The notes beneath the pieces were generated by a model. That model was not told the DNA's origin. It did no database searches and saw only the letters and a list, made by a program, of their open reading frames with translations. This document shows, piece by piece, positions 3,597 to 49,354 of a stretch of DNA of 53,046 nucleotides (position 1 is the stretch's first letter; each line of letters starts with the position of its first letter). A program made the position numbers and the translations under genes. Source of the stretch: Patescibacteria group bacterium (GTDB taxonomy: Bacteria > Patescibacteriota > Minisyncoccia > Phycocordibacterales > UBA2100); assembly GCA_038057405.1 (NCBI GenBank), contig JBBUDH010000005.1, positions 1-53,046 of the forward strand, read 5' to 3'.

Positions 3597-4817
3597 CTAT
3601 GCTACGCGTGTGAGCAGGTTGTCAATGGAAACGCGCTCCTGCTCCCCCGTATCGCGGTTGCGGATGGTGACGGTATCCTTCAATTCGGGCTTTTCGCCGA
3701 GTGTGTCGAAGTCTACCGTGATGCAGTACGGTGTGCCTATCTCGTCCTGCCTGCGGTAGCGCTTGCCGATGTTGCCGTTGTCGTCCCACATGACCTGCGG
3801 TATTTGCTTTTTGAGCATTGCGTATACCTCGCGCGCCTTTGCGACGAGTTCGGGCTTGTTTTTGAGAAGCGGAAAGACGGCGGCTTTGATGGGCGCGACG
3901 GCCTTGTTGAGTTTGAGATACGTGCGCGATTCGCCGCCGAGTTCATCTTCCGTGTAGGCGGAAGCGAGAAGGGCGAGGACCGCGCGGTCCACGCCGAATG
4001 ACGGCTCAATGACGTGCGGCACAAACCGTTCGCCTGCGTCTTCGAGGTATGAAAGGTCGACACCGGAAGCTTTCGCATGCGCGGACAGGTCGAAGTCGGT
4101 GCGGTACGCAAGACCCGAGAGTTCTTTTCTGCCAAATGGGAAATCGAATTCAAAATCTATCGTGCGCTTCGAGTAGTGGGCGCGGTCGGGGTCGGCGACC
4201 TCGACTTCGTGGACACTCCCGGAGGCGATGCCGACCGCTTCGTTGAAGGCATGGACGTTTTGTCTCCACTCTTCGAACGCGGTCTCCCACTCTTGCGGAC
4301 GGACGAAATATTCTATTTCCATCTGTTCGAATTCACGCGCGCGAAAAATGAAATCCCGCGGAGCAATCTCGTTGCGGAAGGCCTTCCCTATCTGCGCGAT
4401 GCCGAACGGCAATTTGGGGTGCAACGAGTCGACGACATTCTTGAAATTGACGAATATGCCGCCGGCGGTCTCCGGCCGCAGATACGCATTGGTCGCTTCA
4501 GCCGCCGCACCGACCGACGTCATGAGCATCGTGTTGAACATTTTTCCGTTCTCGAGCGGGTCCGCAAATCCCGACACGTGGCCGCTCGCCTTCCACGCCT
4601 CCGGGTTCATCACGATAGCTGCGTCCAATCCGCACATATCGTCACGCTCCTGGACAAACATTCTCCACCAGAGCTGCTTTACATTGTTCTTAAGCTCGAC
4701 GCCAAGCGGGCCGTAATCCCAAAAACCGGAAAATCCCCCGTAAATCTCCGAACCCTGGTAAATAAAGCCGCGCCGCTTGGCGAGAGAAACTATCTTTTCC
4801 ATCGTTACGTCAGCCAT
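3597..4817 (-). CDS. glyQS: glycyl-tRNA synthetase, class II alpha2-dimer type
   Basis: MADVTMEKIVSLAKRRGFIYQGSEIYGGFSGFWDYGPLGVELKNN is the canonical GlyQS N-terminus. The ATG at 4817 is preferred over the GTG at 4829. Confidence 0.93.
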   Translation of the reverse strand: MADVTMEKIVSLAKRRGFIYQGSEIYGGFSGFWDYGPLGVELKNNVKQLWWRMFVQERDDMCGLDAAIVMNPEAWKASGHVSGFADPLENGKMFNTMLMTSVGAAAEATNAYLRPETAGGIFVNFKNVVDSLHPKLPFGIAQIGKAFRNEIAPRDFIFRAREFEQMEIEYFVRPQEWETAFEEWRQNVHAFNEAVGIASGSVHEVEVADPDRAHYSKRTIDFEFDFPFGRKELSGLAYRTDFDLSAHAKASGVDLSYLEDAGERFVPHVIEPSFGVDRAVLALLASAYTEDELGGESRTYLKLNKAVAPIKAAVFPLLKNKPELVAKAREVYAMLKKQIPQVMWDDNGNIGKRYRRQDEIGTPYCITVDFDTLGEKPELKDTVTIRNRDTGEQERVSIDNLLTRVA

Positions 4818-38674: not shown

Positions 38675-40090
38675 TCAGGCATTTGCGCGGATGTATTGCC
38701 GCAGTTGCTCCGCATCTATATCAATGACGTGGAAGGCATTTTCCGGCAGCGCTTTTTCGAGGTCTTTGAATCTCGCGGACCGTTCCGGGATAAATCCGAG
38801 CGCTTCTTGTATCGTGTCTTCGAACTTCACCGGCAATGCCGTCCCCATACATACCATCGGCACAGAGTCCTGTTTTTTCTCGCGGAAACCTACCGAAACC
38901 GCGTCTGCCGTGTGCGGGTCAATGACGTACTTACATTTCTTGTATACATCCCGTATCGCCTGCAGGCGATTGGCGTGTGTCGAGCTATCGCTTGAGAATC
39001 CGAGTGCGGCAAAATCATCCGCGCTCGCACCATAATCTTTCAAGTCAACGCACTTCTTCGATTCGAATTCTTTCATGTACTTTGTGAGTGCCGCAGCGTC
39101 CCTCCTGAGCACATCAAACGCCAGCCGTTCATAATTCGACGCTTTTGAAATATCCATGGACGGGCTCGACGTTACCTGGGCCGACGCGAGCTCGTATACA
39201 CCTGTCCTGAAGAGCTTATCGAGAACGGTATTCTCGTTGGTTGCGACGATGAGGCGGCGGATAGGTACACCCATCTGCTTGGCGATATAGCCCGAGAGCA
39301 TGTCGCCGAAATTACCGCTCGGCACGACGAAATCCACAGGGTCGCCGACACGCGCCGCGGCCTGTAGATATCCCGAAACAAAGTACGGTACTTGCGATGA
39401 AATTCTTCCCCAGTTTATCGAATTGACCGCGCCGAGTTTCGAGAACTCCTCCTCCCCTTTCAGCTCCTTCACCAAGTCCTGACAGTCGTCAAAACGTCCG
39501 CGCACACTTATATTGAAAATATTGCCGCCCGAGAGCATGCCCATCTGCGCCTTCTGGAATGCGCTCATGCCCGCTTCGGGACTGAGCATAAAAAGCGTCA
39601 CGGTACCGAGCCCCTTGAAGGCGGCCTCGGCGGCAGAGCCCGTGTCGCCCGAAGTCGCGCCGAGAATGGTCAGGTGCTCACCACGCCTTTTGAGTTCATA
39701 ATCCATTTCTTGGCCGAGCTGCTGCATGGCCATATCTTTGAATGCTGCGGTCGGACCGAGAGAAAGCTGCTGCACATAAAAATCCTCTTCCACTTTCACC
39801 AACGGGACGATATTTCCTCCCTCTGCGGCACCAAAAGAGCTCTCCGAATACGCCTGCTCTACCATGCGGCGCAACTCTTCATCGGGAATATCACCCCCGA
39901 TTAATTTCTTCTTGACGGCATAAGCGATATCCAGATACGGAGCACTTTTGAGTGTCTCGAGTTCCGCGCGGGAAAGTTGCGGATATTCGGACGGAACATA
40001 TAAGCCCCCGTCGGGAGCCAGGCCCGCGAGTAGTACATCTTTGTACGACCATCCCACCTTCGCTGCATCCCGCGTGCTTATCATTTTCAT
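38675..40090 (-). CDS. thrC: threonine synthase (long form)
   Basis: GGLYVPSEYPQL in the N-terminal domain, PTAAFKDMAMQ (PLP-binding lysine), SGNFGD. Confidence 0.92.
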   Translation of the reverse strand: MKMISTRDAAKVGWSYKDVLLAGLAPDGGLYVPSEYPQLSRAELETLKSAPYLDIAYAVKKKLIGGDIPDEELRRMVEQAYSESSFGAAEGGNIVPLVKVEEDFYVQQLSLGPTAAFKDMAMQQLGQEMDYELKRRGEHLTILGATSGDTGSAAEAAFKGLGTVTLFMLSPEAGMSAFQKAQMGMLSGGNIFNISVRGRFDDCQDLVKELKGEEEFSKLGAVNSINWGRISSQVPYFVSGYLQAAARVGDPVDFVVPSGNFGDMLSGYIAKQMGVPIRRLIVATNENTVLDKLFRTGVYELASAQVTSSPSMDISKASNYERLAFDVLRRDAAALTKYMKEFESKKCVDLKDYGASADDFAALGFSSDSSTHANRLQAIRDVYKKCKYVIDPHTADAVSVGFREKKQDSVPMVCMGTALPVKFEDTIQEALGFIPERSARFKDLEKALPENAFHVIDIDAEQLRQYIRANA

Positions 40091-40094
40091 ATCG

Positions 40095-40748
40095 TCATGC
40101 AGGCAAGCGCGAACGTATGATAGCTATCGTCTCGCGACCGCTCTTGTCGTACAGGTCAGCGACGGGCACGTTTACATGCGCCATGCCCCGATATTTCTTG
40201 AGGCGGTCACGCAGGAGTGCGGGAAAACACCGTTCGAGTGTTTCTTTCTGCGTCTCACCCCGTTTTTGAACGTACATGCCGTTCCAAACCACCGGCTTCG
40301 GCTGCTCAAAAAACTTTTGTATCATTGTATCAATATACTTCTCGCCCGCTTCGAGATTTACGATGAGGCAATTTTCTTGCAGCCACTGCGTCGTCGGCTT
40401 CTCAAGGTAGATGACGCTCCCTGTCGTATCAAATACGAGATTCCGGTCGGTATCAATAAAATCCACTTTCGTGTGCTTCGCTTCCGAGTCGAGATACTCA
40501 CGCTCGCGCACCCCATACGTGGGACTGTCGGGAAGCCCGAGCCATTCGGCAATTTCTTCCATCCCTGAAAAACCGAGAGATTTTATTATTTCTTTGTCCA
40601 CCTGATACCAGTCGAACCCGAACTGGTCGCGGAGCACCTTGGAGCGATAGCTCTTGCCCACGTTCGACATGCCGACAAAGGCGATACGGAGCGAATTATC
40701 CGCAATATGCGCATCGTATTCGGCCTGCGTAAGCGGTGTGAGGTCCAT
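40095..40748 (-). CDS. P-loop NTPase/kinase-fold protein (shikimate-kinase-like size), function unknown
   Basis: Walker A is IAFVGMSNVGKS. The start is trimmed to the ATG at 40748 because the longer ORF runs through tRNA-Ser. Confidence 0.65.
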   Translation of the reverse strand: MDLTPLTQAEYDAHIADNSLRIAFVGMSNVGKSYRSKVLRDQFGFDWYQVDKEIIKSLGFSGMEEIAEWLGLPDSPTYGVREREYLDSEAKHTKVDFIDTDRNLVFDTTGSVIYLEKPTTQWLQENCLIVNLEAGEKYIDTMIQKFFEQPKPVVWNGMYVQKRGETQKETLERCFPALLRDRLKKYRGMAHVNVPVADLYDKSGRETIAIIRSRLPA

Positions 40749-40830
40749 TCGCGCAACATTACAATATTTTTGTGAAATGCAAAAACCGGATATGCACCGT
40801 CGTTTTTGGTATGCATCTATCACACAACTT

Positions 40831-40918
40831 TGGCGGAGGGGGTGAGATTCGAACTCACGAGGCCTTGCGACCTGGCGCATTTCAAGTGCGCTGGAATGAA
40901 CCGCTATCCGACCCCTCC
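40831..40918 (-). tRNA. tRNA-Ser: tRNA-Ser (anticodon TGA) with encoded CCA
   Basis: Acceptor GGAGGGG/CCCCTCC, anticodon arm GCGCA-CTTGAAA-TGCGC, long variable arm, T-arm GTGAG-TTCGAAT-CTCAC, then G-CCA. Confidence 0.9.
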
Positions 40919-40922
40919 CTCT

Positions 40923-41408
40923 TCAATCGCTTACAGTACCACTGAGCCAGCTATTTTCTAAGTAGTGTTCTTCCGCGTGGCAATTAGGGCAAATTAGTTC
41001 GAGATTGTCCATTTCATTGTGCGTTCTGTTCCTGTCCTTGTGATGTATATGCAAAATCTCGAGTTTAGCGAAACCGCATCGCTCACACTTCTTTCCCCGT
41101 TTTGAGATGAGGCGTAATTTTATGCTTCTCTGGTCTTTTACCTTGTCCCTTGGACTGCCAATCTTATATTTAATCCCAGCCCGGTTCTTATTCGCACATG
41201 TTCTGCTGCACGTTTTCTTGTTTGCACTGGCAAGAATTAACTTTCCACACATCACACACGGCCTTTCCTTTCGATTAGAAATCCCGTAACAGGCGAGGCC
41301 GCAAAATAATCGTCCTCCGTTTTTCTGCATTTCAATTGGCCTCCTGTAGATGGGTTTCTTGCAAACGAGGCATACCGTATTTGGATTTCTTTTATGTGAC
41401 TCGGCCAC
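40923..41408 (-). CDS. HNH endonuclease with N-terminal Cys-rich zinc-finger-like repeats
   Basis: The HNH core is HIHHKDRNRTHNEMDNLELICPNCHAEEH, and several CxxC pairs lie upstream. The stop is 4 nt from the tRNA-Ser 5' end. The gene looks AT-richer by eye. Confidence 0.85.
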   Translation of the reverse strand: MAESHKRNPNTVCLVCKKPIYRRPIEMQKNGGRLFCGLACYGISNRKERPCVMCGKLILASANKKTCSRTCANKNRAGIKYKIGSPRDKVKDQRSIKLRLISKRGKKCERCGFAKLEILHIHHKDRNRTHNEMDNLELICPNCHAEEHYLENSWLSGTVSD

Positions 41409-41507
41409 TCGTCCAGTATACCACTCCTTAGTCGAGGGTGACCCTTATACTCACCTTCTTCCGTCTTGCCTCAAATAGGTGTTGCAAAACGCGATACAAT
41501 AACCGCA

Positions 41508-41978
41508 ATGCCCCCACAACGAACCGTTTTGCGATGGAACGCGTACGAGCACGAGCACATACCGCGCAGCAGCGATTGGTATTGGGCGCTCGGTGTCGTC
41601 GCCGTTTCGGCAGCACTCACAAGCATCCTCTTCCACAACATCCTTTTTGCGATTCTTATTCTCATCGCCGCCGGCATCCTCGGCATGCTCGCCAACGTCC
41701 CGCCCGACCTTGTACGCTTCGAGATATCGGACCGCGGCGTGCGTATCGGCGACACGATGCATCGCTACGAAGAGATTGTCTCCTTCTGGGTGGAGGAAGA
41801 GGGGCTCGACCGCCCACTGCTCCTCATCGACACAACCAAGATCATGGCTCCGAATCTTATTATTCCGCTTGAAAATATTGATCCGCACGCGGTACGCAGC
41901 TTCCTGACCGAATATGCGGAGGAAGTTCCTATGAAGGAACCCGTCGCACACAAAATCCTCGAATTTTTTGGTCTGTAG
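41508..41978 (+). CDS. two-TM membrane protein with a C-terminal soluble domain, function unknown
   Basis: WYWALGVVAVSAALTSILFHNILFAILILIAAGILGML. The start is set at MPPQRTVLRW. Confidence 0.6.
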   Translation: MPPQRTVLRWNAYEHEHIPRSSDWYWALGVVAVSAALTSILFHNILFAILILIAAGILGMLANVPPDLVRFEISDRGVRIGDTMHRYEEIVSFWVEEEGLDRPLLLIDTTKIMAPNLIIPLENIDPHAVRSFLTEYAEEVPMKEPVAHKILEFFGL

Positions 41979-41981
41979 CGG

Positions 41982-43886
41982 TTAATCGCCAACCTCCACC
42001 GTAGTCGTCGCCTGCCTGTCTATACCTCCCTTTGTTATACAGTCCAATTGGAACATCGCCGAGCTCGTAATCGGCGAAGTCGTAGCCGCACCCGTCACAC
42101 TGGTGTTGGAGGAGTTGCGCAGGGTGAAGTCGGGTTGGTCGGGGCTTGAGATGATGCAGGAGTCCATGCCGGTCGTGAGCCAGGAGATGAGCGAGATCTC
42201 TCCCGGAGCTAACGTCCTCGGATTGGTGACGAGGAAGATGTTGGGGCGGTTCACCTTGACCGAGCACTGTGCGCCGGTCGTTTTGCCGTTGTCGGTACAG
42301 GCGAGGGTGTAAGTGGCGGTGTTGGTGCCCTGGGGCGGGGCTTTGACGGTTGTCGTGGCGGAGCCGCCCGGTTGGGTGGTCACCTTGAATGCGCTGCTGG
42401 AGGCGATGCCCGAGGAGCAGTTGTAGGTGAGGGCGAGTGTCTGGCCGACATCGGCGAGGTCGGGTTCACAGACGAGCTCCGCCTTGGGACCTTCGGTCGA
42501 GATACACTGCCAACCGGTGATACAGGCGCCGCTGTAGGTGGCGCGCCATGCGCCCGCGGAGCAGGCCGACGGTGGTGGCTGTTGAGGTTGGCTCTGGCAT
42601 TGGTTGCCGGTCGAGGGCGTGCAGGGGGTCGGTTGCGCGGGAGGCGGTTGGGTCGGCGGTGCGATGCCGCCGTTCTGCTGTGCGTAGTACTGATTCATCT
42701 GCTGTTGGTACTGGTACTGCTGGAGCTGGTAGTTGTACTGCTGCAATTGCTGTTGGTATTGAGCTTGTTGTTGGGCGTATGCGTCCCGGTCGGTGGCGCA
42801 GGCTTGTGCGGGAGCCGACGGAGGGGGCTGCGGCGCACCGAGTGCTTTCATGAGTCCTTGGAGCATGGAACCGAAGGCGCTCATGGGATTTGAGTTACCG
42901 CCCGTATTCTTTCCCGCGTTGGGGTCGAATGTACCGCTTCCATCCCGGCTACAATTCGGACCTGTACATCCGGGCTTTGGCGGACAGGCGCCAGTTTTTG
43001 AATCCATTTGTCCGTACTGACATGGCCCCTGATACGTCGGCGCCTTATCTTCCGGCGTCTTGGGCGGCACTACCGGCGTCTGTTCTTCGGCAAGTTTCCG
43101 CGTATCGATTTTGCTCAGGTTTGCGTTTTGCTCTGCAAGCCTCTTGTTTTCCTCTGCAAGCCTCTTGGCTTCCGGATCATTTTGTCCCAATGCTTGGATA
43201 GCGGCATAGTTATCGGCCTGTTTATTCTGCATCTTTGTTTGTTCATCATCCTTGGCCTCGCTAAAAGCAGCTTGCATATACGGGTCGAGCTTCGAAAGAC
43301 GAGCCTGTACCCCGGTGGGGTCGGTCTTCGCGTCTTCCAGAAGTTTTTGGATCGCCGGGTCATTCTTAAAGTACTCAGGAACAAGGGCCGCCTTCCCGAG
43401 TATTTCATCCTTTTTCTTCTCTGACCCCCCGCCGACGGCTTGGCAAGATCCTGCCGCCGCCCCGCACTGCGAGACCACGCACTGCTTCTCGGTCTCACAC
43501 TTCTTCTTGCTTGCGGCATCTGTTATATCCTTACAAGTATCAATTGCGTCTATGGTGGTGGGAGTTCCCGGATAGATTTTATACTGACATCCTTTCACGC
43601 AGACTGATTCAACACCCTTTTCGCCGTCGAGAGGCCCTTTCGCGTTCTTATCTTTTTTCACTTCAATGGGTGCATTACAACGACTTGCCCCCTTGAGTGT
43701 CGCCCCCGGCTTCTTCGCCGGCGCAGCTGCCGCGGGGGCTGCCGCTTCGGCGGTTTGTGACTCTACATTCGCATAGGGAGAAAAATACTGCACCGTGGTC
43801 GCTACCCCCGCAAGAAGCGCGACGAAAACAAGCGCGGAGAGGATTGTAGCTCCACGATTCAAAAGCCGCCCATGAGGTGTTGCCAT
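41982..43886 (-). CDS. secreted or membrane-anchored Cys-rich, Q/Y-rich surface protein (634 aa), paralog 1
   Basis: Signal anchor ILSALVFVALLAGVATTV, a Cys-rich module, coiled or charged spacers, the MLQGLMKALGAPQPPP motif, a QQYNYQLQQYQYQQQ tract and a C-terminal beta-sandwich-like domain. Confidence 0.75.
   Translation of the reverse strand: MATPHGRLLNRGATILSALVFVALLAGVATTVQYFSPYANVESQTAEAAAPAAAAPAKKPGATLKGASRCNAPIEVKKDKNAKGPLDGEKGVESVCVKGCQYKIYPGTPTTIDAIDTCKDITDAASKKKCETEKQCVVSQCGAAAGSCQAVGGGSEKKKDEILGKAALVPEYFKNDPAIQKLLEDAKTDPTGVQARLSKLDPYMQAAFSEAKDDEQTKMQNKQADNYAAIQALGQNDPEAKRLAEENKRLAEQNANLSKIDTRKLAEEQTPVVPPKTPEDKAPTYQGPCQYGQMDSKTGACPPKPGCTGPNCSRDGSGTFDPNAGKNTGGNSNPMSAFGSMLQGLMKALGAPQPPPSAPAQACATDRDAYAQQQAQYQQQLQQYNYQLQQYQYQQQMNQYYAQQNGGIAPPTQPPPAQPTPCTPSTGNQCQSQPQQPPPSACSAGAWRATYSGACITGWQCISTEGPKAELVCEPDLADVGQTLALTYNCSSGIASSSAFKVTTQPGGSATTTVKAPPQGTNTATYTLACTDNGKTTGAQCSVKVNRPNIFLVTNPRTLAPGEISLISWLTTGMDSCIISSPDQPDFTLRNSSNTSVTGAATTSPITSSAMFQLDCITKGGIDRQATTTVEVGD
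41998..42470. repeat. 473-bp direct repeat, copy 1 (identical by eye to 44233-44705)
   Basis: Compared line by line with no differences found; constant offset of 2235 bp. It encodes the C-terminal 157 aa of both paralogs. Confidence 0.9.
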
Positions 43887-44097
43887 GTCGCAATCATGCG
43901 CCCCATATGCCTAAGGCGCAATGCACAGAATCGCCAAAATGTGGAAAAAACTAGTGCACCCGGCGTCGGAGCGATGCTCCTCTCTGAGAACCCTCGGTTC
44001 TCAGCGTCCGCAAAACGGACTGCTCTCCGATACGGGAAACTACCGTTTCCCGACCCCTTCCCAAACCGGGAGCAATTCATTCGTTCCACTCACTCAT

Positions 44098-44169
44098 TGC
44101 TCCCGGTTGGAATCGAACCAACATCGTATCCTCCGCAAGGATATATCCTATCCATTGAACGACGGGAGC
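44098..44169 (-). tRNA. tRNA-Arg: tRNA-Arg (anticodon GCG)
   Basis: Acceptor GCTCCCG/CGGGAGC, anticodon arm TATCC-TTGCGGA-GGATA, T-arm TTGGT-TCGATTC-CAACC region, discriminator A. Confidence 0.85.
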
Positions 44170-44216
44170 GTTGCGGAAAATGTATCACATTTCTCCTCTT
44201 TTCCGTAACAGGAACG

Positions 44217-46820
44217 CTATTCCTCAACACTTACCGTAGTCGTCGCCTGCCTGTCTATACCTCCCTTTGTTATACAGTCCAATTGGAACATCGCCGAGCT
44301 CGTAATCGGCGAAGTCGTAGCCGCACCCGTCACACTGGTGTTGGAGGAGTTGCGCAGGGTGAAGTCGGGTTGGTCGGGGCTTGAGATGATGCAGGAGTCC
44401 ATGCCGGTCGTGAGCCAGGAGATGAGCGAGATCTCTCCCGGAGCTAACGTCCTCGGATTGGTGACGAGGAAGATGTTGGGGCGGTTCACCTTGACCGAGC
44501 ACTGTGCGCCGGTCGTTTTGCCGTTGTCGGTACAGGCGAGGGTGTAAGTGGCGGTGTTGGTGCCCTGGGGCGGGGCTTTGACGGTTGTCGTGGCGGAGCC
44601 GCCCGGTTGGGTGGTCACCTTGAATGCGCTGCTGGAGGCGATGCCCGAGGAGCAGTTGTAGGTGAGGGCGAGTGTCTGGCCGACATCGGCGAGGTCGGGT
44701 TCACATGAAAGAGTCGCGGTCGGAGCATCTCCGGTATTTGGGCAGTTCCAATTAGTGATACATGAACCGTTGTAGACGGGTCTCCAGCCGCCGGTACAGG
44801 AAGAGGCCGCCGGTTGTTGTGGTTGCTCTCTACACTGGCTCCCGGTCGAGGGGGTACACGCGCTTGGTTGAGGCGGCAGCGGTTGAACGGGCGGCGGAGT
44901 GGTCCCGTTGCGCTCGGCATAGAACTGATTCACCTGCTGCTGGTACTGCTGCTGTTGCATTTGGTAGTTGTACTGCTGCAGCTGCTGTTGATACTGCTGC
45001 TGTTGTTGGGCGTATATGTTGGGGTCGGTGGAACATGGCTGAGAGGGAGCGGCTGGTGGAGGCTGCGGCGCCCCGAGTGCTTTCATGAGTCCTTGGAGCA
45101 TTGAGCTGAGTGCGGAGCCGAGCCCGGAACCCGAACCGCCTTGGTTGTTGGTCTTATCGCCGTTGCCGTCGGGTGCGCCGCCCCCGCCCGTCGGCGTTTT
45201 GGCCGCTGGCGGTCCGCCCTGCCCGGGAGCTGGTGTGAACTTCTTTGCATCCTTACAACTTCCGAACTGGTCGCACCACTGATCGCCACGCTGAACGTAG
45301 TAAGGCTTGCTTGGGTCGGGTGCCCCTTTCGACTGTTCCGACTTCGCGAGAGGGTCATTCTTCGGGTCCGGGGCCTGTTCCGGTCTCGGTTTCGGAAGCG
45401 GCACATTAACAGCTTTTTCTTCAGGTTTCGGCGCAGATCCTCCTCCTTGCGCCCCTGCGTCCGTCGCTAACTTGTCAGCGTGCGCCGCTCGTATGTCCTC
45501 TCCATAATTATCGTGGAGTGCTTTCTTATCCTTATCCGAAAGTGAGTTGTACCAATCCATTGTCGGATCTGCCGGTGCATTTCTTCCCGTAAGCTCATCC
45601 AGCTCTTTTCGTTGTGCCGGACTAAAATCATTGGTACCTGCATTTGCGCCTGCCTCGGCATTTTTGAGTTCTTGTATTCTCGCATCCCTGTCGAGCGCGG
45701 CTTGATTGTTTGCCTCAGCCCATGCCGCCTGGTCGGAGCGAATTGTTTCCTCAAGTGCGGCTTGATTGTTTGCCCCAGCCCATGCCGCCTGGTCGGAGCG
45801 AATTGTTTCTTCAAGTGCGGCTTGTCTGTTTGCCGCATCCCATGCGGCCTGATCGGAACGAATTGTATTCTCCAGCTCTGCTTTTCTAAGTTCCTCTGGA
45901 GTTGCCGCGGGCCCGAACGTATCCTGGGGACCAAAAGCGTCTGCCAGTTTTGCGTAATCCGCTGCTGTCTGCTGCTCAGGTGTGAGTCTGACTGGGTTAT
46001 CACCGAGCGACTTATCCAGCGGTACGTTGTATGCCCCCACTCCGTCGTCGGTTTCAGTCAGCTTGGTTGGGCTACCGCCGGATTTCAAAATCTGGTCGTA
46101 GGCATCCTGCTGCCGTGCAAGTTCATTCTCTTGCATCTGAAGATTTGATGACAATCCGTTCAATTGATCTTCCTTTACTGGCGTCCAGCTAGTCAAGCCC
46201 TGAGTCGCTTTCCGATATTCCTCTTCCATGGCGGCAATACGGGACTTGGTCATATCAATACCACGCTGTGTATCTTCAAGGTCCGCAGGCGTAATATTCT
46301 CGCCCGTACCGCTTCCGCCATTGGGTAACTTTGTCTTTTCCGGATTGCAGCTATTTTCCGGAGCACCTTCAGTCGCGACCCGACACGTATTGCCGTGCTT
46401 TATGACCGAGCAACACTGCTTGAGTGCTCCGTTTGCCTCAACCAGGTCTGTACAAGACGAGATACAATCTGAATCCTTGGGGCACTGGTCTATTGTCTTT
46501 GTGTCTATTTTTTGACATTTGTTCTCAATACACGCCTTCCAGAGGAGATCACACCGATTCTCTGTCATTTTTGGATTGCTCTTGCATTTCGTGTACTCCC
46601 TCCCGCAGATACCGTCGTTGGGGTCGGTGGATGCTGGGTCGTTTACCGGCGCGGGAGCCTGCGCGAGCTGCGAGCGCGCACTTACGGCGTACGAAGCTTC
46701 AGGGGAAAGTACGGTGGCCAAGCTGACAACCCCGGTCGTACCGCCCAGTATCGCTATGAAAACGAGAGGGATTGCAAAAGAAAACTTCCGCTCGGGATTG
46801 AGCGATTCGTGGAAAACCAT
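44217..46820 (-). CDS. secreted or membrane-anchored Cys-rich, Q/Y-rich surface protein (867 aa), paralog 2
   Basis: Same architecture as 41982-43886, with a longer central region that contains 20-aa tandem repeats. Confidence 0.75.
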   Translation of the reverse strand: MVFHESLNPERKFSFAIPLVFIAILGGTTGVVSLATVLSPEASYAVSARSQLAQAPAPVNDPASTDPNDGICGREYTKCKSNPKMTENRCDLLWKACIENKCQKIDTKTIDQCPKDSDCISSCTDLVEANGALKQCCSVIKHGNTCRVATEGAPENSCNPEKTKLPNGGSGTGENITPADLEDTQRGIDMTKSRIAAMEEEYRKATQGLTSWTPVKEDQLNGLSSNLQMQENELARQQDAYDQILKSGGSPTKLTETDDGVGAYNVPLDKSLGDNPVRLTPEQQTAADYAKLADAFGPQDTFGPAATPEELRKAELENTIRSDQAAWDAANRQAALEETIRSDQAAWAGANNQAALEETIRSDQAAWAEANNQAALDRDARIQELKNAEAGANAGTNDFSPAQRKELDELTGRNAPADPTMDWYNSLSDKDKKALHDNYGEDIRAAHADKLATDAGAQGGGSAPKPEEKAVNVPLPKPRPEQAPDPKNDPLAKSEQSKGAPDPSKPYYVQRGDQWCDQFGSCKDAKKFTPAPGQGGPPAAKTPTGGGGAPDGNGDKTNNQGGSGSGLGSALSSMLQGLMKALGAPQPPPAAPSQPCSTDPNIYAQQQQQYQQQLQQYNYQMQQQQYQQQVNQFYAERNGTTPPPVQPLPPQPSACTPSTGSQCREQPQQPAASSCTGGWRPVYNGSCITNWNCPNTGDAPTATLSCEPDLADVGQTLALTYNCSSGIASSSAFKVTTQPGGSATTTVKAPPQGTNTATYTLACTDNGKTTGAQCSVKVNRPNIFLVTNPRTLAPGEISLISWLTTGMDSCIISSPDQPDFTLRNSSNTSVTGAATTSPITSSAMFQLDCITKGGIDRQATTTVSVEE
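44233..44705. repeat. 473-bp direct repeat, copy 2
   Basis: See copy 1. Confidence 0.9.
45697..45876. repeat. three 60-bp in-frame tandem repeats inside the 867-aa gene
   Basis: Units 45697-45756 and 45757-45816 differ at 2 of 60 positions; the third unit (45817-45876) is more diverged. They encode (A)ALEETIRSDQAAWAxANNQ. Confidence 0.9.
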
Positions 46821-46906
46821 ATCGCAATAATGCGCCCTGCGGGGCGAAGCTGCAACGCGGCAAAAGGGGAAAAGCTTAGGCCGTCTACAGGTGCCTAACT
46901 CAGACG

Positions 46907-47173
46907 TTAGGCCGCGAGTGAGCGGAGAGCCTTGGCTGCGCGCGACTTCATGCGCGCCGCGGTGTTCTTCTTGATGGTTCCCTCTTTGGCAGCCTTGTCT
47001 ATCGCCTTATAGACCTTGGGGAGCATGGCGGTCGCCTCTTTGGCGCTCTTGCCAAGCACGAGCTTGCTCATATCTTTGACCGCATCTTTCATCGCCTTCT
47101 TGCGGCGCGCATTGAAAACACGCCGTTTCTCTGCGGCGCGCATTGCTTTCTTTGCGGAACTCGTATTGGCCAT
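46907..47173 (-). CDS. rpsT: 30S ribosomal protein S20
   Basis: MANTSSAKKAMRAAEKRRVFNARRKKAMK. Confidence 0.93.
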   Translation of the reverse strand: MANTSSAKKAMRAAEKRRVFNARRKKAMKDAVKDMSKLVLGKSAKEATAMLPKVYKAIDKAAKEGTIKKNTAARMKSRAAKALRSLAA

Positions 47174-47232
47174 GTGCCGCGCATCCTAACGGATTACGCC
47201 CGAAGTAGCAAGTTTTTTGCTATGATTCGCTC

Positions 47233-47811
47233 ATGATAGGACGCCTCTCCGGAAATGTGTCGGCGATACGGGCGGGATACGCGATAGTCTCGGCCGGCGG
47301 CGTCGGGTACAAAGTGTTTGCGACACGCGAGCTTCTGCTCTCGCTCAAGCAAGGCACCGAGGCCGCTATTTGGACACACCTTGCCGTACGCGAAAGCATC
47401 CTCGACCTCTACGGTTTCTCCAATGAGGAAGAGCTCCGGCTCTTCGAACTCCTCCTCACCGTGTCGGGTATCGGTCCGAAATCCGCACTCGCCATTCTCG
47501 ACATCGCATCCGTCGAAACGCTGCGCAGCGCGGTCTCCGCGGGCAACGCGTCATACCTCACCAAAGTCTCGGGTATCGGCAAAAAAACCGCGGAGAAAAT
47601 TGTTCTTGAACTACGTGACAAGGTCGGGACCTCGCTAGACGGGAACGACGCCGTGCTCCAAGGAGACGAAGAAGCGCTCGAGGCGATGCGCGCCCTCGGC
47701 TACTCGCAGGGCGAGGCGCGGGATGCGCTGCGCAAAGTGCCACAGGAAATCGAGCGCTCCAATGAAAGGCTCCGCGAGGCGCTGCGTATCCTGGGCTCTC
47801 ATAAAAAGTGA
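47233..47811 (+). CDS. ruvA: Holliday junction DNA helicase subunit RuvA
   Basis: MIGRLSGNV...GGVGYKVF...LYGF...ELFELLLTVSGIGPKSALAIL...VSGIGKKTAEKIVLEL. Confidence 0.92.
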   Translation: MIGRLSGNVSAIRAGYAIVSAGGVGYKVFATRELLLSLKQGTEAAIWTHLAVRESILDLYGFSNEEELRLFELLLTVSGIGPKSALAILDIASVETLRSAVSAGNASYLTKVSGIGKKTAEKIVLELRDKVGTSLDGNDAVLQGDEEALEAMRALGYSQGEARDALRKVPQEIERSNERLREALRILGSHKK

Positions 47812-47839
47812 ACGCTCCGAAACCAGATATACTAGAGCT

Positions 47840-48817
47840 ATGATAAAACGTGTTCTCATTGTCTCCTTAATCGTCTTCATCATCGCGCTTATTCTCTTTT
47901 GGTTTATGACCGGCGGGTGGGCCGCCGCAGCGCGCACTGCGCGCTCGCTCGGCAATCCGCTCGAGCTTATTTTCGGGACGAGCACTTCGGGCTCTTTCAT
48001 CAAACTTCCCTGGCAACCCCCCGAGCTTGTCCGCGGTCCCGACATTGCCGACTACGCCGACGAGGCGGACGCCCGTATTCTCGCATCGGGCGATGAAGAC
48101 CAGTTCACGAACACACCGCCTGCGCCAAGAGGTGGGTTTGGTGATGCCTCCGTGTATTCGGGCAAAGTATCCATCAAAGAGAGTAGCGCGACGGAATCCG
48201 GTGTCGCACTGGAATTCATCCAACTCACCGCATCCGACGACAACAACCAGCCCATACCCGTTACCAATTGGGCTCTGCAGAGTGCGGTCACGGGCGCTCG
48301 TGGGGTAATTCCGCCGGCAGCGCCATTCTTCATTCTCGGTGTGGTCAATCCCGTCCAGTCCGTCTACCTCGAACCGGGCGCGTCCATTTTCGTGACGACA
48401 GGGGCGTCTCCCGTGGGCACCTCATTCCGCGAGAATATCTGCAGCGGCTACCTGACCGAGCTTCACACCTTCACACCCGAACTCGCGAATGAATGCCCTA
48501 CCCCACCCGAAATGCTCCCGATGAACGCGGACAACCTCCGTACCTACGGCAGCTCATGCTTCGACTATCTCGATACCCTGACGCAGTGCCATTTCCCGGC
48601 GACGCTGCCCGGCGAGCTGTCCGCCGCGTGCCGTTCGTTCATTTCCAACACAATGTCCTACAACGGCTGCATCAACGCCTCCCGCGATCGCACTCCATTT
48701 GCCCTCCCGGCTTTCCGCACCTATCTCGGCCTGCGCTCCGAGCTGTGGAGTAATTCGCACGACGTGATACGCCTTATTGACGCAGAAGGACGGACGGTGG
48801 ATATCTTAACGTACTAG
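47840..48817 (+). CDS. membrane-anchored protein with a probable lamin-tail-like (LTD) beta domain and a Cys-rich C-terminal region
   Basis: TM helix VLIVSLIVFIIALILFWF, then GKVSIKESSATESGVALEFIQLTASDDNNQPIPVTNWALQS. The LTD assignment is from memory of the family pattern only. Confidence 0.6.
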   Translation: MIKRVLIVSLIVFIIALILFWFMTGGWAAAARTARSLGNPLELIFGTSTSGSFIKLPWQPPELVRGPDIADYADEADARILASGDEDQFTNTPPAPRGGFGDASVYSGKVSIKESSATESGVALEFIQLTASDDNNQPIPVTNWALQSAVTGARGVIPPAAPFFILGVVNPVQSVYLEPGASIFVTTGASPVGTSFRENICSGYLTELHTFTPELANECPTPPEMLPMNADNLRTYGSSCFDYLDTLTQCHFPATLPGELSAACRSFISNTMSYNGCINASRDRTPFALPAFRTYLGLRSELWSNSHDVIRLIDAEGRTVDILTY

Positions 48818-48821
48818 ACAC

Positions 48822-48851
48822 AGCTTGTAGCTGGCAGCTTACAGCTTGTAG
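48822..48851. repeat. 30-bp inverted repeat, left arm (partner 49383-49412)
   Basis: AGCTTGTAGCTGGCAGCTTACAGCTTGTAG compared with the reverse complement of the right arm, AGCTTGTAGCTGTTAGCTTACAGCTTGTAG: 28 of 30 match. Confidence 0.85.
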
Positions 48852-49354
48852 GAGATGCAGGAAAAGAGAATAATCCCCGCAGCGACGGAAACGTTGAGTG
48901 ATTCTTTCCCCCTGCCAGAATGGCGGGGGTGGTGAGCTTGTCGAACCATTGCCCCCTGCATTGGGATTTCTACGACCGCATCGCATAGCTTGAGAATTCC
49001 TTTCGGAATCCCGCTCACTTCGTTGCCGAAAACGAATACGGTCTTGCTTTTTGCTTTGAACTTACGGTAATCGCGAGCACGGACATCTTGCTCGACGCCG
49101 ACGATACGCCACCCCTCGTTTTTTAGCCTCGCTATGAGGCGCGGCGGGAACGCATAATGCTCCCACGGAAGGAATTTCTCCGCACCGAGCGCCGTCTTCG
49201 CGATGTCTTTCCTTGCCCGCCCGAATCTATCGGTAGGTGTTGGGGTGTATCCCGTTAGGTACACACGAGAAACTCCTGCGGCATCCGCCGTGCGGAATAT
49301 GGAACCGACATTGTGCGTGCTTCGGATGTTATGTAGCAGTACAGCAACCTCCAT
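48839..49354 (-). CDS. SpoU/TrmH-family RNA 2'-O-methyltransferase
   Basis: LHNIRSTHNVGSIFRTADAAGV...FVFGNEVSGI...VEIPMQG...SLNVSVAAGI. Confidence 0.88.
   Translation of the reverse strand: MEVAVLLHNIRSTHNVGSIFRTADAAGVSRVYLTGYTPTPTDRFGRARKDIAKTALGAEKFLPWEHYAFPPRLIARLKNEGWRIVGVEQDVRARDYRKFKAKSKTVFVFGNEVSGIPKGILKLCDAVVEIPMQGAMVRQAHHPRHSGRGKESLNVSVAAGIILFSCISYKL

Follow-up and report, generated by a model that had tools for sequence, protein, structure and literature searches.

Silent, truncated donor genes supply variable segments to a single expression site in Neisseria (pilE/pilS), Borrelia (vlsE) and Mycoplasma genitalium (mgpB/MgPar), and the outcome is diversity. In the tufA/tufB genes of Salmonella and in rRNA operons, conversion keeps paralogs near-identical, including at synonymous sites, and whole genes are homogenised. 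The 3′ segments of the Helicobacter pylori gene pairs babA/babB and homA/homB evolve in concert via RecA-dependent intragenomic gene conversion (Pride & Blaser, 2002, as summarised in PMC3960876). Here we describe two neighbouring genes, A and B, that are predicted to encode large extracellular proteins. They lie in a 53,046-nt stretch of DNA from a Patescibacteria group bacterium (GCA_038057405.1, contig JBBUDH010000005.1, positions 1-53,046), referred to below as the window. The genes flank a tRNA-Arg(GCG) gene and share a 473-bp block of identical sequence at their 3′ ends. Related contigs carry L-numbers; those from GTDB genomes bear the labels Candidatus Kaiserbacteria, Nomurabacteria, Paceibacterota or Parcubacteria, and in a few cases "Saccharibacteria". 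The host of genes A and B is a member of Candidatus Kaiserbacteria, uncultivated bacteria of the Candidate Phyla Radiation (CPR, or Patescibacteria), from Hainich groundwater.

The babA/babB and homA/homB pairs are the closest analogue of this locus. The process itself is known, and the protein family is a new example of it. In both cases there are two full-length paralogs for surface proteins (expressed in H. pylori), the 3′ segments resemble each other more within one strain than across strains, the remaining parts follow the identity of the gene or allele, and chimeric genes form through intragenomic conversion. The systems differ in that the 3′ segment of the H. pylori genes specifies a beta-barrel anchor in the outer membrane, whereas that of A and B encodes two predicted soluble immunoglobulin (Ig)-like domains without an anchor signal. 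In addition, the H. pylori loci are dispersed, whereas A and B lie in tandem on either side of a tRNA gene. The two systems share no sequence homology, and the host of A and B is a CPR bacterium with an uncharacterised envelope.

With the cassette systems the locus shares non-reciprocal recombination acting on genes for surface proteins, and conserved segments that flank variable ones. However, A and B are both complete, each has its own conserved leader, and it is the conserved module that is converted, which homogenises the copies. A cassette-type antigenic or phase-variation system was rejected because both genes are full-length, a repeat search of positions 40000-49000 revealed no silent cassettes, and the converted part is the conserved module. 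The locus differs from tufA/tufB and rRNA operons in that a single module of otherwise unalignable proteins is homogenised.

Results

The two genes were originally predicted to share an identical 3′ block with abrupt ends. Position-by-position comparison at an offset of 2235 nt confirms this: the longest exact run, 473 nt, matches 41998-42470 to 44233-44705. The second-longest run at this offset is 29 nt (42838-42866) and encodes the peptide MLQGLMKALG, which corresponds to a second conserved island noticed previously. The 5′ edge of the block falls exactly on the Cys codon that opens Ig-like domain 1 (TGT GAA CCC, C-E-P). The 3′ edge lies four codons before the stops, after ..ACG GT, so that ..ATTTV is followed by EVGD* in A and by SVEE* in B; codon-level inspection thus bears out the difference reported for the last four codons. 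Upstream of the block about 410 nt align at about 75% identity (a repeat-search match within this segment covers 282 nt at 75%), and the remainder of the two genes does not align at the DNA level. BLASTN of A against B gave 86% identity over 882 nt, with 102 mismatches and 8 gap openings, all outside the block. Were 102 differences spread evenly over 882 positions, the probability that a given 473-nt stretch would be clean is approximately (409/882)^102, or about 1e-34. The proteins are 84% identical over their last 293 residues and show a weak match near the start (A 19-148 and B 19-158, 29% identity, E 9e-5), in agreement with the claim that similarity outside the block is patchy. No further copies of the repeat were found in a repeat search of 40000-49000.

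Two other assemblies in the European Nucleotide Archive (ENA), Hain_H43_02um_R1 (L001, 12.7 kb) and R3 (L055, 51 kb), contain this gene pair together with its 473-bp block; they derive from replicate samples of the 0.2 µm fraction of Hainich groundwater well H43. L001 differs from the window at 17 positions and L055 at 6, none of them inside the block. Two single-nucleotide differences of L055 beside the block (42480 and 42483) were considered as B-derived traces of a polymorphic tract edge. This idea was rejected, as they are not B-derived.

Synonymous divergence separates the block sharply from its surroundings. We calculated synonymous (dS) and nonsynonymous (dN) divergence by the Nei-Gojobori method; the block comparison uses the core of the two Ig-like domains (Ig1 and Ig2), 137 codons. 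For A and B of the window, dS is 0 in the block (105.7 synonymous sites) and 1.57 in the adjoining flank, where dN is 0.25. Between the window and its orthologs in L022, part of the closest relative (L022/L026), block dS is 0.32 for L022_B and 0.47 for L022_A. Comparison of A with B inside other genomes gave block values of 0.28 (L022) and 0.056 (L032), with the flank saturated in both pairs, and 0.018 (L008). In L008 the flank value is also low (0.085), because the homogenised tract extends into the flank, and saturation is confined to the tail. One alternative to conversion is that extreme purifying selection or a codon constraint acts on the Ig module without any transfer of DNA. It would be in keeping with the low dN/dS between orthologs in the block (about 0.07-0.08, from dN of about 0.03 and dS of 0.32-0.47), a value that does indicate protein-level constraint on the domain. 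However, synonymous sites diverge freely between orthologs and not at all between the paralogs, and selection on the protein explains neither the zero dS of the paralogs nor a tail of B type in gene A (see below). We find this explanation scarcely credible.

Homogenisation of the same module is evident in relatives. Nucleotide identity between A and B of one genome is 0.98 in Ig1 and 1.00 in the Ig2 core for the window, 0.88 and 0.96 for L022, 0.99 and 0.95 for L032, 1.00 and 0.99 for L008, and 0.98 and 0.95 for L009. Between genomes of this clade, identity in the same segments is 0.59-0.91 (0.70-0.91 when the Ig2 core of L007, which is not homogenised, is left aside). In a neighbour-joining tree of the Ig1 and Ig2-core codons, A pairs with B of its own genome in nine of ten genomes (bootstrap 0.76-1.0). 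The tail (the last ~24 codons) and the upstream Cys-rich segment group by gene position and not by genome, and the tail tree splits an A-type (..FLLHCET.AGG.KDATTTV) from a B-type (..FQLDC.T..G.D.QATT.V). Ordinary divergence of the C-terminal domains in relatives had been named beforehand as the refuting test of the conversion idea; what the relatives show is the same homogenisation. Together with a dS of 0 against ~1.6 in the flank, the pairing by genome and the independent tracts with different ends (see below) strongly support the earlier suggestion of recent gene conversion or concerted evolution.

A search with the shared 213 aa (tblastn) identified two tandem copies in L007-L014, L022/L026, L032, L034/35, L038 and L040-42. 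Orthologs of gene A occupy the same position in relatives, and B-type orthologs are present in L007, L008, L010, L011, L022, L023, L026-L028 and L032. In the tandem pairs the upstream copy has a B-type N-terminus (MVFHESLNxERKFSF...) and the downstream copy an A-type one (..RGASILSALVFVA..), and the order B, tRNA-Arg(GCG), A is kept in L007-L014, L022/L026, L032 and L040. These observations bear on the possibility that the C-terminal segment or the whole gene was duplicated very recently and then diverged rapidly elsewhere, with no conversion of old paralogs. A lineage-specific duplication would likewise produce pairing within genomes. Under such a scenario, however, one would not expect A- and B-type N-termini, leaders, gene order and A- and B-specific tails each to be orthologously conserved across genomes, dS between the A and B flanks to be saturated, or tract ends to vary by lineage. 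Recent duplication is therefore a highly improbable source of the identity.

The ends of the homogenised tract differ among lineages. In L008 it extends for 780 bp at 100% identity, from a proline-rich stretch (PPPAAPAQAC) just upstream of the Q-rich region to a point before the tail. In L009 it covers at least 341 bp at 97%, and in L007 the Cys knot and Ig1 are homogenised and Ig2 is not. Identity across the homogenised region is about 95-99% in L009 and L032 and 88-96% in L022, and the block of L032 is on a 588-kb contig.

Given the nature of the data, an assembly artefact has to be weighed. The C-terminal regions might be similar rather than identical, or the tail of gene A might truly be A-type, with the observed sequence produced by graph simplification or a chimeric path. 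The contig names give a low coverage (cov 7-8), the assemblies are from short reads, and a 473-bp repeat exceeds the typical read length. Many related contigs break in or at the edge of the domain (L009, L018, L023, L045, L047-L053), and L025 has a tRNA cassette at both contig ends. Nevertheless, three assemblies are base-for-base equal in the block and differ elsewhere, and the long shared k-mer that a chimeric junction four codons from the stop would require is absent at that place. Moreover, in relatives assembled by other groups the same region is 95-100% identical and includes imperfect blocks, one of them on the 588-kb contig; because the blocks of L009, L022 and L032 are near-identical yet imperfect, assembly collapse cannot produce them. 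An artefact would at most lower the identity from 100% to the high 90s and leave the conclusion unchanged. We thus consider this explanation improbable, though less so than recent duplication, and the data from relatives make the qualitative conclusion of gene conversion independent of any merging of copies in the window assembly.

The tail indicates which copy was overwritten. In all other genomes of the close clade the tract ends before the tail, and gene A retains an A-type tail. In the window the tail of gene A is B-type: its identity is 0.74 to L022_B and 0.56 to L022_A, and it groups with the tails of window B and L022_B (bootstrap 0.98). The last four codons of gene A (EVGD; compare EVSD in L022_A and P0001) and its 3′ flank are still A-type. 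A direction from B to A is indicated by the B-type tail in gene A and by a block dS nearer to L022_B (0.32) than to L022_A (0.47). Thus, the simplest reading of the sequence is a recent B-to-A conversion of ~473 bp. In L024, from another aquifer population, the gene in the B position has an A-like Q/Cys region, from which it appears that conversion can also run the opposite way, from A to B. Also found was a 2.1-kb contig from Rifle (L025) in which the tRNA cassette is present at both ends (2-108 and 2006-2112) of an A-type gene with a B-type tail. L024 and L025 may represent either extra tandem copies, converted variants or paths through the repeat in the assembly graph.

The shared C-terminal module is, in our models, a Q/Y-rich helix, then a Cys-rich knot and a pair of Ig-like sandwiches. 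For the last 213 aa, AlphaFold2 run on an alignment of 12 sequences gave a model with a mean pLDDT (predicted local distance difference test) of 86. It consists of strands throughout, with a small Cys-rich beta element leading into two beta-sandwich domains. A 305-aa model adds a long helix for the Q/Y-rich stretch (model residues 38-76) at moderate confidence. Foldseek against PDB returned 126 matches at E <= 1e-3 (best E 1e-5), all of them Ig-like tandems, including Yersinia InvE (5n40), titin Z1Z2, intercellular adhesion molecules (ICAMs) and Aureispira GhpA; against BFVD it returned cyanophage virion proteins (E 8e-9). The earlier description of a beta-sandwich-like domain with conserved Cys is therefore upheld. 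The likeness to tandem Ig adhesins (InvE, GhpA) and to phage decoration or tail proteins, all with two consecutive beta-sandwiches, is one of generic fold only, as template-modelling (TM) scores are 0.3-0.4 and identities 10-20%. Pfam searches of A, B and the shared module gave no significant match (best BatD, E 0.16), nor did NCBIfam or a PDB sequence-profile search (0 matches). Bacterial Ig-like families in Pfam (Big_1/2/3, of invasin/intimin type) produced no profile match, leaving a likeness at the level of the fold.

Each protein has one hydrophobic segment, which is N-terminal (residues ~8-40), and an even number of cysteines, 24 in A and 26 in B. From these features we infer that A and B are secreted or N-terminally anchored, disulfide-bonded extracellular proteins. 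The shared domain had been proposed to serve as an anchor, and here the original prediction does not hold. The sole hydrophobic segment is at the other end, and we found no C-terminal sorting or anchor signal (LPXTG, C-terminal transmembrane segment or C-terminal domain of the type IX secretion system type) and no family of that kind at the ends ..TTTVEVGD (A) and ..TTTVSVEE (B). In addition, some orthologs have domains after the Ig pair (cupredoxin, E 3.6e-9; Kre9_KNH-like Ig) or a PKD insertion before it (Table 1), and domains beyond the pair argue against a strict C-terminal sorting or anchoring role. The Ig pair more probably serves as a distal or stalk module than as an anchor at the C-terminus.

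The Q/Y-rich stretch AYAQQQQQYQQQLQQYNYQLQQYxYQQQ (42700-42800 and 44935-45035) is conserved family-wide as a sequence and not merely as a composition. Judging from its modelled helix, it may be an oligomerisation element. A type IV pilin or TadE/TadG-like pseudopilin identity, a lead based on the RGASILSALVFVA N-terminus, was discarded, as 11 family members gave no N_methyl, TadE or Tad match in Pfam at E <= 0.1-1. A pilin gene occurs near the locus only in L002 and L005. A hidden Markov model (HMM) search of 1.84 billion representative proteins identified 268 clusters (defined at 50% identity) at E <= 1e-30 and 773 at E <= 1e-3, with the module mostly terminal in proteins of 600-1000 aa. The family is substantial, unannotated and undescribed.

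The central regions of the two genes have a different history from their ends. Compared with L022/L026, the flanking genes, both 5′ ends and both 3′ modules of the window show 80-90% nucleotide identity. The central ~0.9 kb of A (42900-43780) and ~1.5 kb of B (45150-46660) have no nucleotide match to L022/L026, and forced global alignment of the proteins gives 14-32% identity there. The centre of window A is 63-67% identical at the protein level to those of L008, L009, L028 and L052, whose ends are more distant, and the centre of gene B is a patchwork common to L011, L026, L027, L023 and L007. When the N-terminal and central 334 aa of A were used in a word-index search for homologs, one partial match was returned. 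Conserved ends thus bracket exchangeable central cassettes, and the cassette-like mosaics, which occur even between close relatives, lend support to the earlier idea of variable exposed parts. Gene B also contains a tandem repeat (Table 1), and 20-aa units related to its units are found in L007_B and L011_B.

The matching leaders that had been noted at the two start codons are real. The match GCGCAT[G/T]ATTGCGA[C/T]ATG lies at 43884-43901 and 46818-46835, and these are the only two matches in the window at <=3 mismatches (0.19 expected). The leader is specific to the family, and its nucleotide-level conservation, which reaches well outside the coding sequence, follows the pattern TTTTCCACATTTT - N~10 - CATTGCGCC - N10 - GGGGCGCATGATTGC(N3-4)ATG, and was found in the window, L005, L007-L011, L013, L015, L022, L024, L025, L028, L032, L033, L039, L040 and L052. 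In 520 kb of loci, 23 of the 31 matches to its core motif abut an annotated family start, and three more precede truncated A-type genes. Within the motif is an imperfect inverted repeat (TGCGCC..GGCGCA), and no Shine-Dalgarno sequence is obvious. Judged by its sequence, it could be a shared operator or translational element. Scans of 41900-47000 for sigma-70 promoters and terminators gave no excess over shuffled sequence.

It is tempting to go further and regard the locus as a dedicated CPR module for surface variation, in which the leader and N-terminus at one end and the 3′ Ig module at the other would act as recombination handles for swapping central cassettes. Central ectodomain cassettes would then be exchanged between strains and between paralogs (discordant central "allele classes" do occur among close relatives), and an essential tRNA-Arg(GCG) between the repeats would safeguard against loss of a paralog by crossover. 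If so, the two genes would form a system for host attachment or phage evasion that is specific to Kaiserbacteria-like episymbionts. We consider this extension rather unlikely.

The tRNA gene is itself a persistent part of the locus. It is present between the copies, in either orientation, in every two-copy genome that was scanned for tRNAs except L041, in which the tandem pair has no intervening tRNA. Some lineages have the tRNA-A unit only (e.g., L015). In about half of the genomes the cassette, which is the tRNA with ~30 nt to either side, is turned round with respect to the genes next to it, even among close relatives with identical tRNA sequence (window; L002, L009, L011, L032 and L040 compared with L007, L008, L012-L014 and L022). 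A permissive Rfam search of the region between A and B found the tRNA only. In the Rifle relative L022 an additional small open reading frame (ORF), absent from the window, lies between the tRNA and the gene A leader (3730-4140).

Table 1. Coordinates and composition of features at the locus. Positions refer to the window unless a related contig is named.
Feature	Position	Strand	Description
Gene A	41982-43886	-	634 aa, intact ORF; exact product also in ENA contig L001
Gene B	44217-46820	-	867 aa, intact ORF; exact product in L055 and L056
Order of parts in gene A			N-terminal hydrophobic signal or anchor, Cys-rich/helical centre, amphipathic MLQGLMKALG, Q/Y-rich helix, Cys-rich knot, two Ig-like domains (predicted)
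tRNA-Arg(GCG)	44098-44169	-	between genes A and B, same strand
Converted block, copy in gene A (putative recipient)	41998-42470	-	Ig-like domains 1 and 2, B-type tail (MFQLDCITKGGIDRQATTTV)
Converted block, copy in gene B (probable donor)	44233-44705	-	exact identity; tail B-type
Gene A segment upstream of block	42471-42880	-	~75% to gene B; MLQGLMKALG island, PPP, Q/Y-rich helix, Cys-rich knot; unconverted here
Gene B counterpart of 42471-42880	44706-45115	-	located by sequence comparison
Conserved 5′ leader of gene A	43884-43960	-	TTTTCCACATTTT..CATTGCGCC..N10..GGGGCGCATGATTGCGACATG
Related 5′ leader of gene B	46818-46890	-	TTTTCCCCTTTT..CGTTGCAGC..GGGCGCATTATTGCGATATG
3 x 60-nt tandem repeat in gene B	45691-45870	-	20-aa units ALEETIRSDQAAWAxANNQA; 100%, 93%, 82%
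Convergent neighbour gene	41466-41978	+	170 aa, no family match; marks the A-side flank in all relatives
Orthologs with extra domains	L014 6098-11278; L007 4715-7600; L040 8812-11220; L014 12180-14834		

Gene B is a paralog of gene A with another N-terminus (MVFHESLNPERKFSF...) and another central region, and the C-terminal module is the part shared with gene A. Neighbours in the window include rpsT, ruvA (47233-47811), a SpoU methylase, a Glu/Leu dehydrogenase, thrC, a Pif1 helicase, an HNH protein and several tRNAs. A prophage or mobile-element context was ruled out, as the neighbours are housekeeping genes and the setting is chromosomal. The HNH-endonuclease gene (40923-41408) is situated between the 170-aa neighbour and tRNA-Ser, and the same slot in the distant relatives L002 (2597-3025) and L005 (2578-3018) is occupied by a type IV pilin (N_methyl) gene. 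Also present is a 364-aa ORF (47723-48817) that matches the Lamin Tail Domain at E 1.4e-5, which does not reach the curated cutoff. With the start as listed, this ORF and the 3′ end of ruvA share ~90 nt, and so the true start is probably further downstream.

Discussion

We conclude that the identical block very probably results from recurrent gene conversion between the ancient tandem paralogs A and B, with the latest event in this genome running from B to A. The comparisons show a non-reciprocal transfer of sequence between two direct repeats that has recurred in many lineages. Genes A and B are old tandem duplicates for large, disulfide-rich proteins that are probably extracellular, and recurrent homologous recombination between these copies, 2.2 kb apart, would keep the C-terminal module near-identical in each genome. 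The latest event would have carried ~473 bp from B to A, beginning at the Cys codon that opens Ig domain 1 and ending four codons short of the stop codon, and would have overwritten the tail typical of A in this lineage. Such recombination is presumably of the RecA type. Crossover products that delete tRNA-Arg(GCG) may be removed by selection, in which case conversion outcomes alone would persist; were the tRNA single-copy, its deletion would be lethal, and this would account for its presence between the paralogs in nearly all genomes checked. The codons CGC and CGT make up 57% of Arg codons in 13 genes of the window.

Base composition sets the block apart. GC content at third codon positions (GC3) reaches 0.80 there, compared with 0.55 for the remainder of both genes and 0.65 for 11 other genes of the window. 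The last 165 codons are GC3-enriched in all seven other genomes checked. In the relatives checked (among L007-L013, L022 and L032), GC3 of the module is 0.61-0.84; outside the module the same genes have 0.45-0.64. The elevated value of the block fits GC-biased gene conversion but is not proof of it.

Several points weigh against this interpretation. Merging of copies that are ~98-99% identical (bubble popping), with one path traversed twice, could overstate the perfect identity. All three assemblies derive from replicate sampling of a single well and were probably made with the same pipeline, and the doubled tRNA cassette of L025 shows that assemblers struggle at this locus. The direction from B to A depends mainly on 24 tail codons and a modest difference in dS (0.32 vs 0.47). 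Pairing within lineages in the deep lineages L040 and L041 could reflect independent duplications. The only recombination gene identified in the window is ruvA, and the one search made, for a RecA Walker-A motif in the six-frame translation of the 53 kb, found nothing, although the window may simply not contain recA.

The proteins are probably exposed at the cell surface, where the mosaic central parts would face the environment, a host or phages, and the common Ig module may have a shared structural or partner-binding role. Homogenisation may be selected, through a common partner or co-assembly of A and B via the Ig pair or the helix, or it may be a neutral by-product of similarity under purifying selection.

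A practical consequence of conversion is that a tree of the C-terminal domain should not be read as a species or ortholog tree. Furthermore, contigs of these organisms often break at this locus because of the exact repeat. The locus indicates that homologous recombination is active and recurrent in small CPR genomes. A literature search on gene conversion in the CPR and on surface proteins of Kaiserbacteria found nothing relevant. CPR bacteria are generally regarded as living attached to other cells, and hardly any of their surface proteins have been characterised. The family described here is modular, with conserved ends and a mosaic middle, is usually encoded by a tandem gene pair, and has an Ig module that evolves in concert. 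These traits make the pair a candidate for interaction with host cells or phages.

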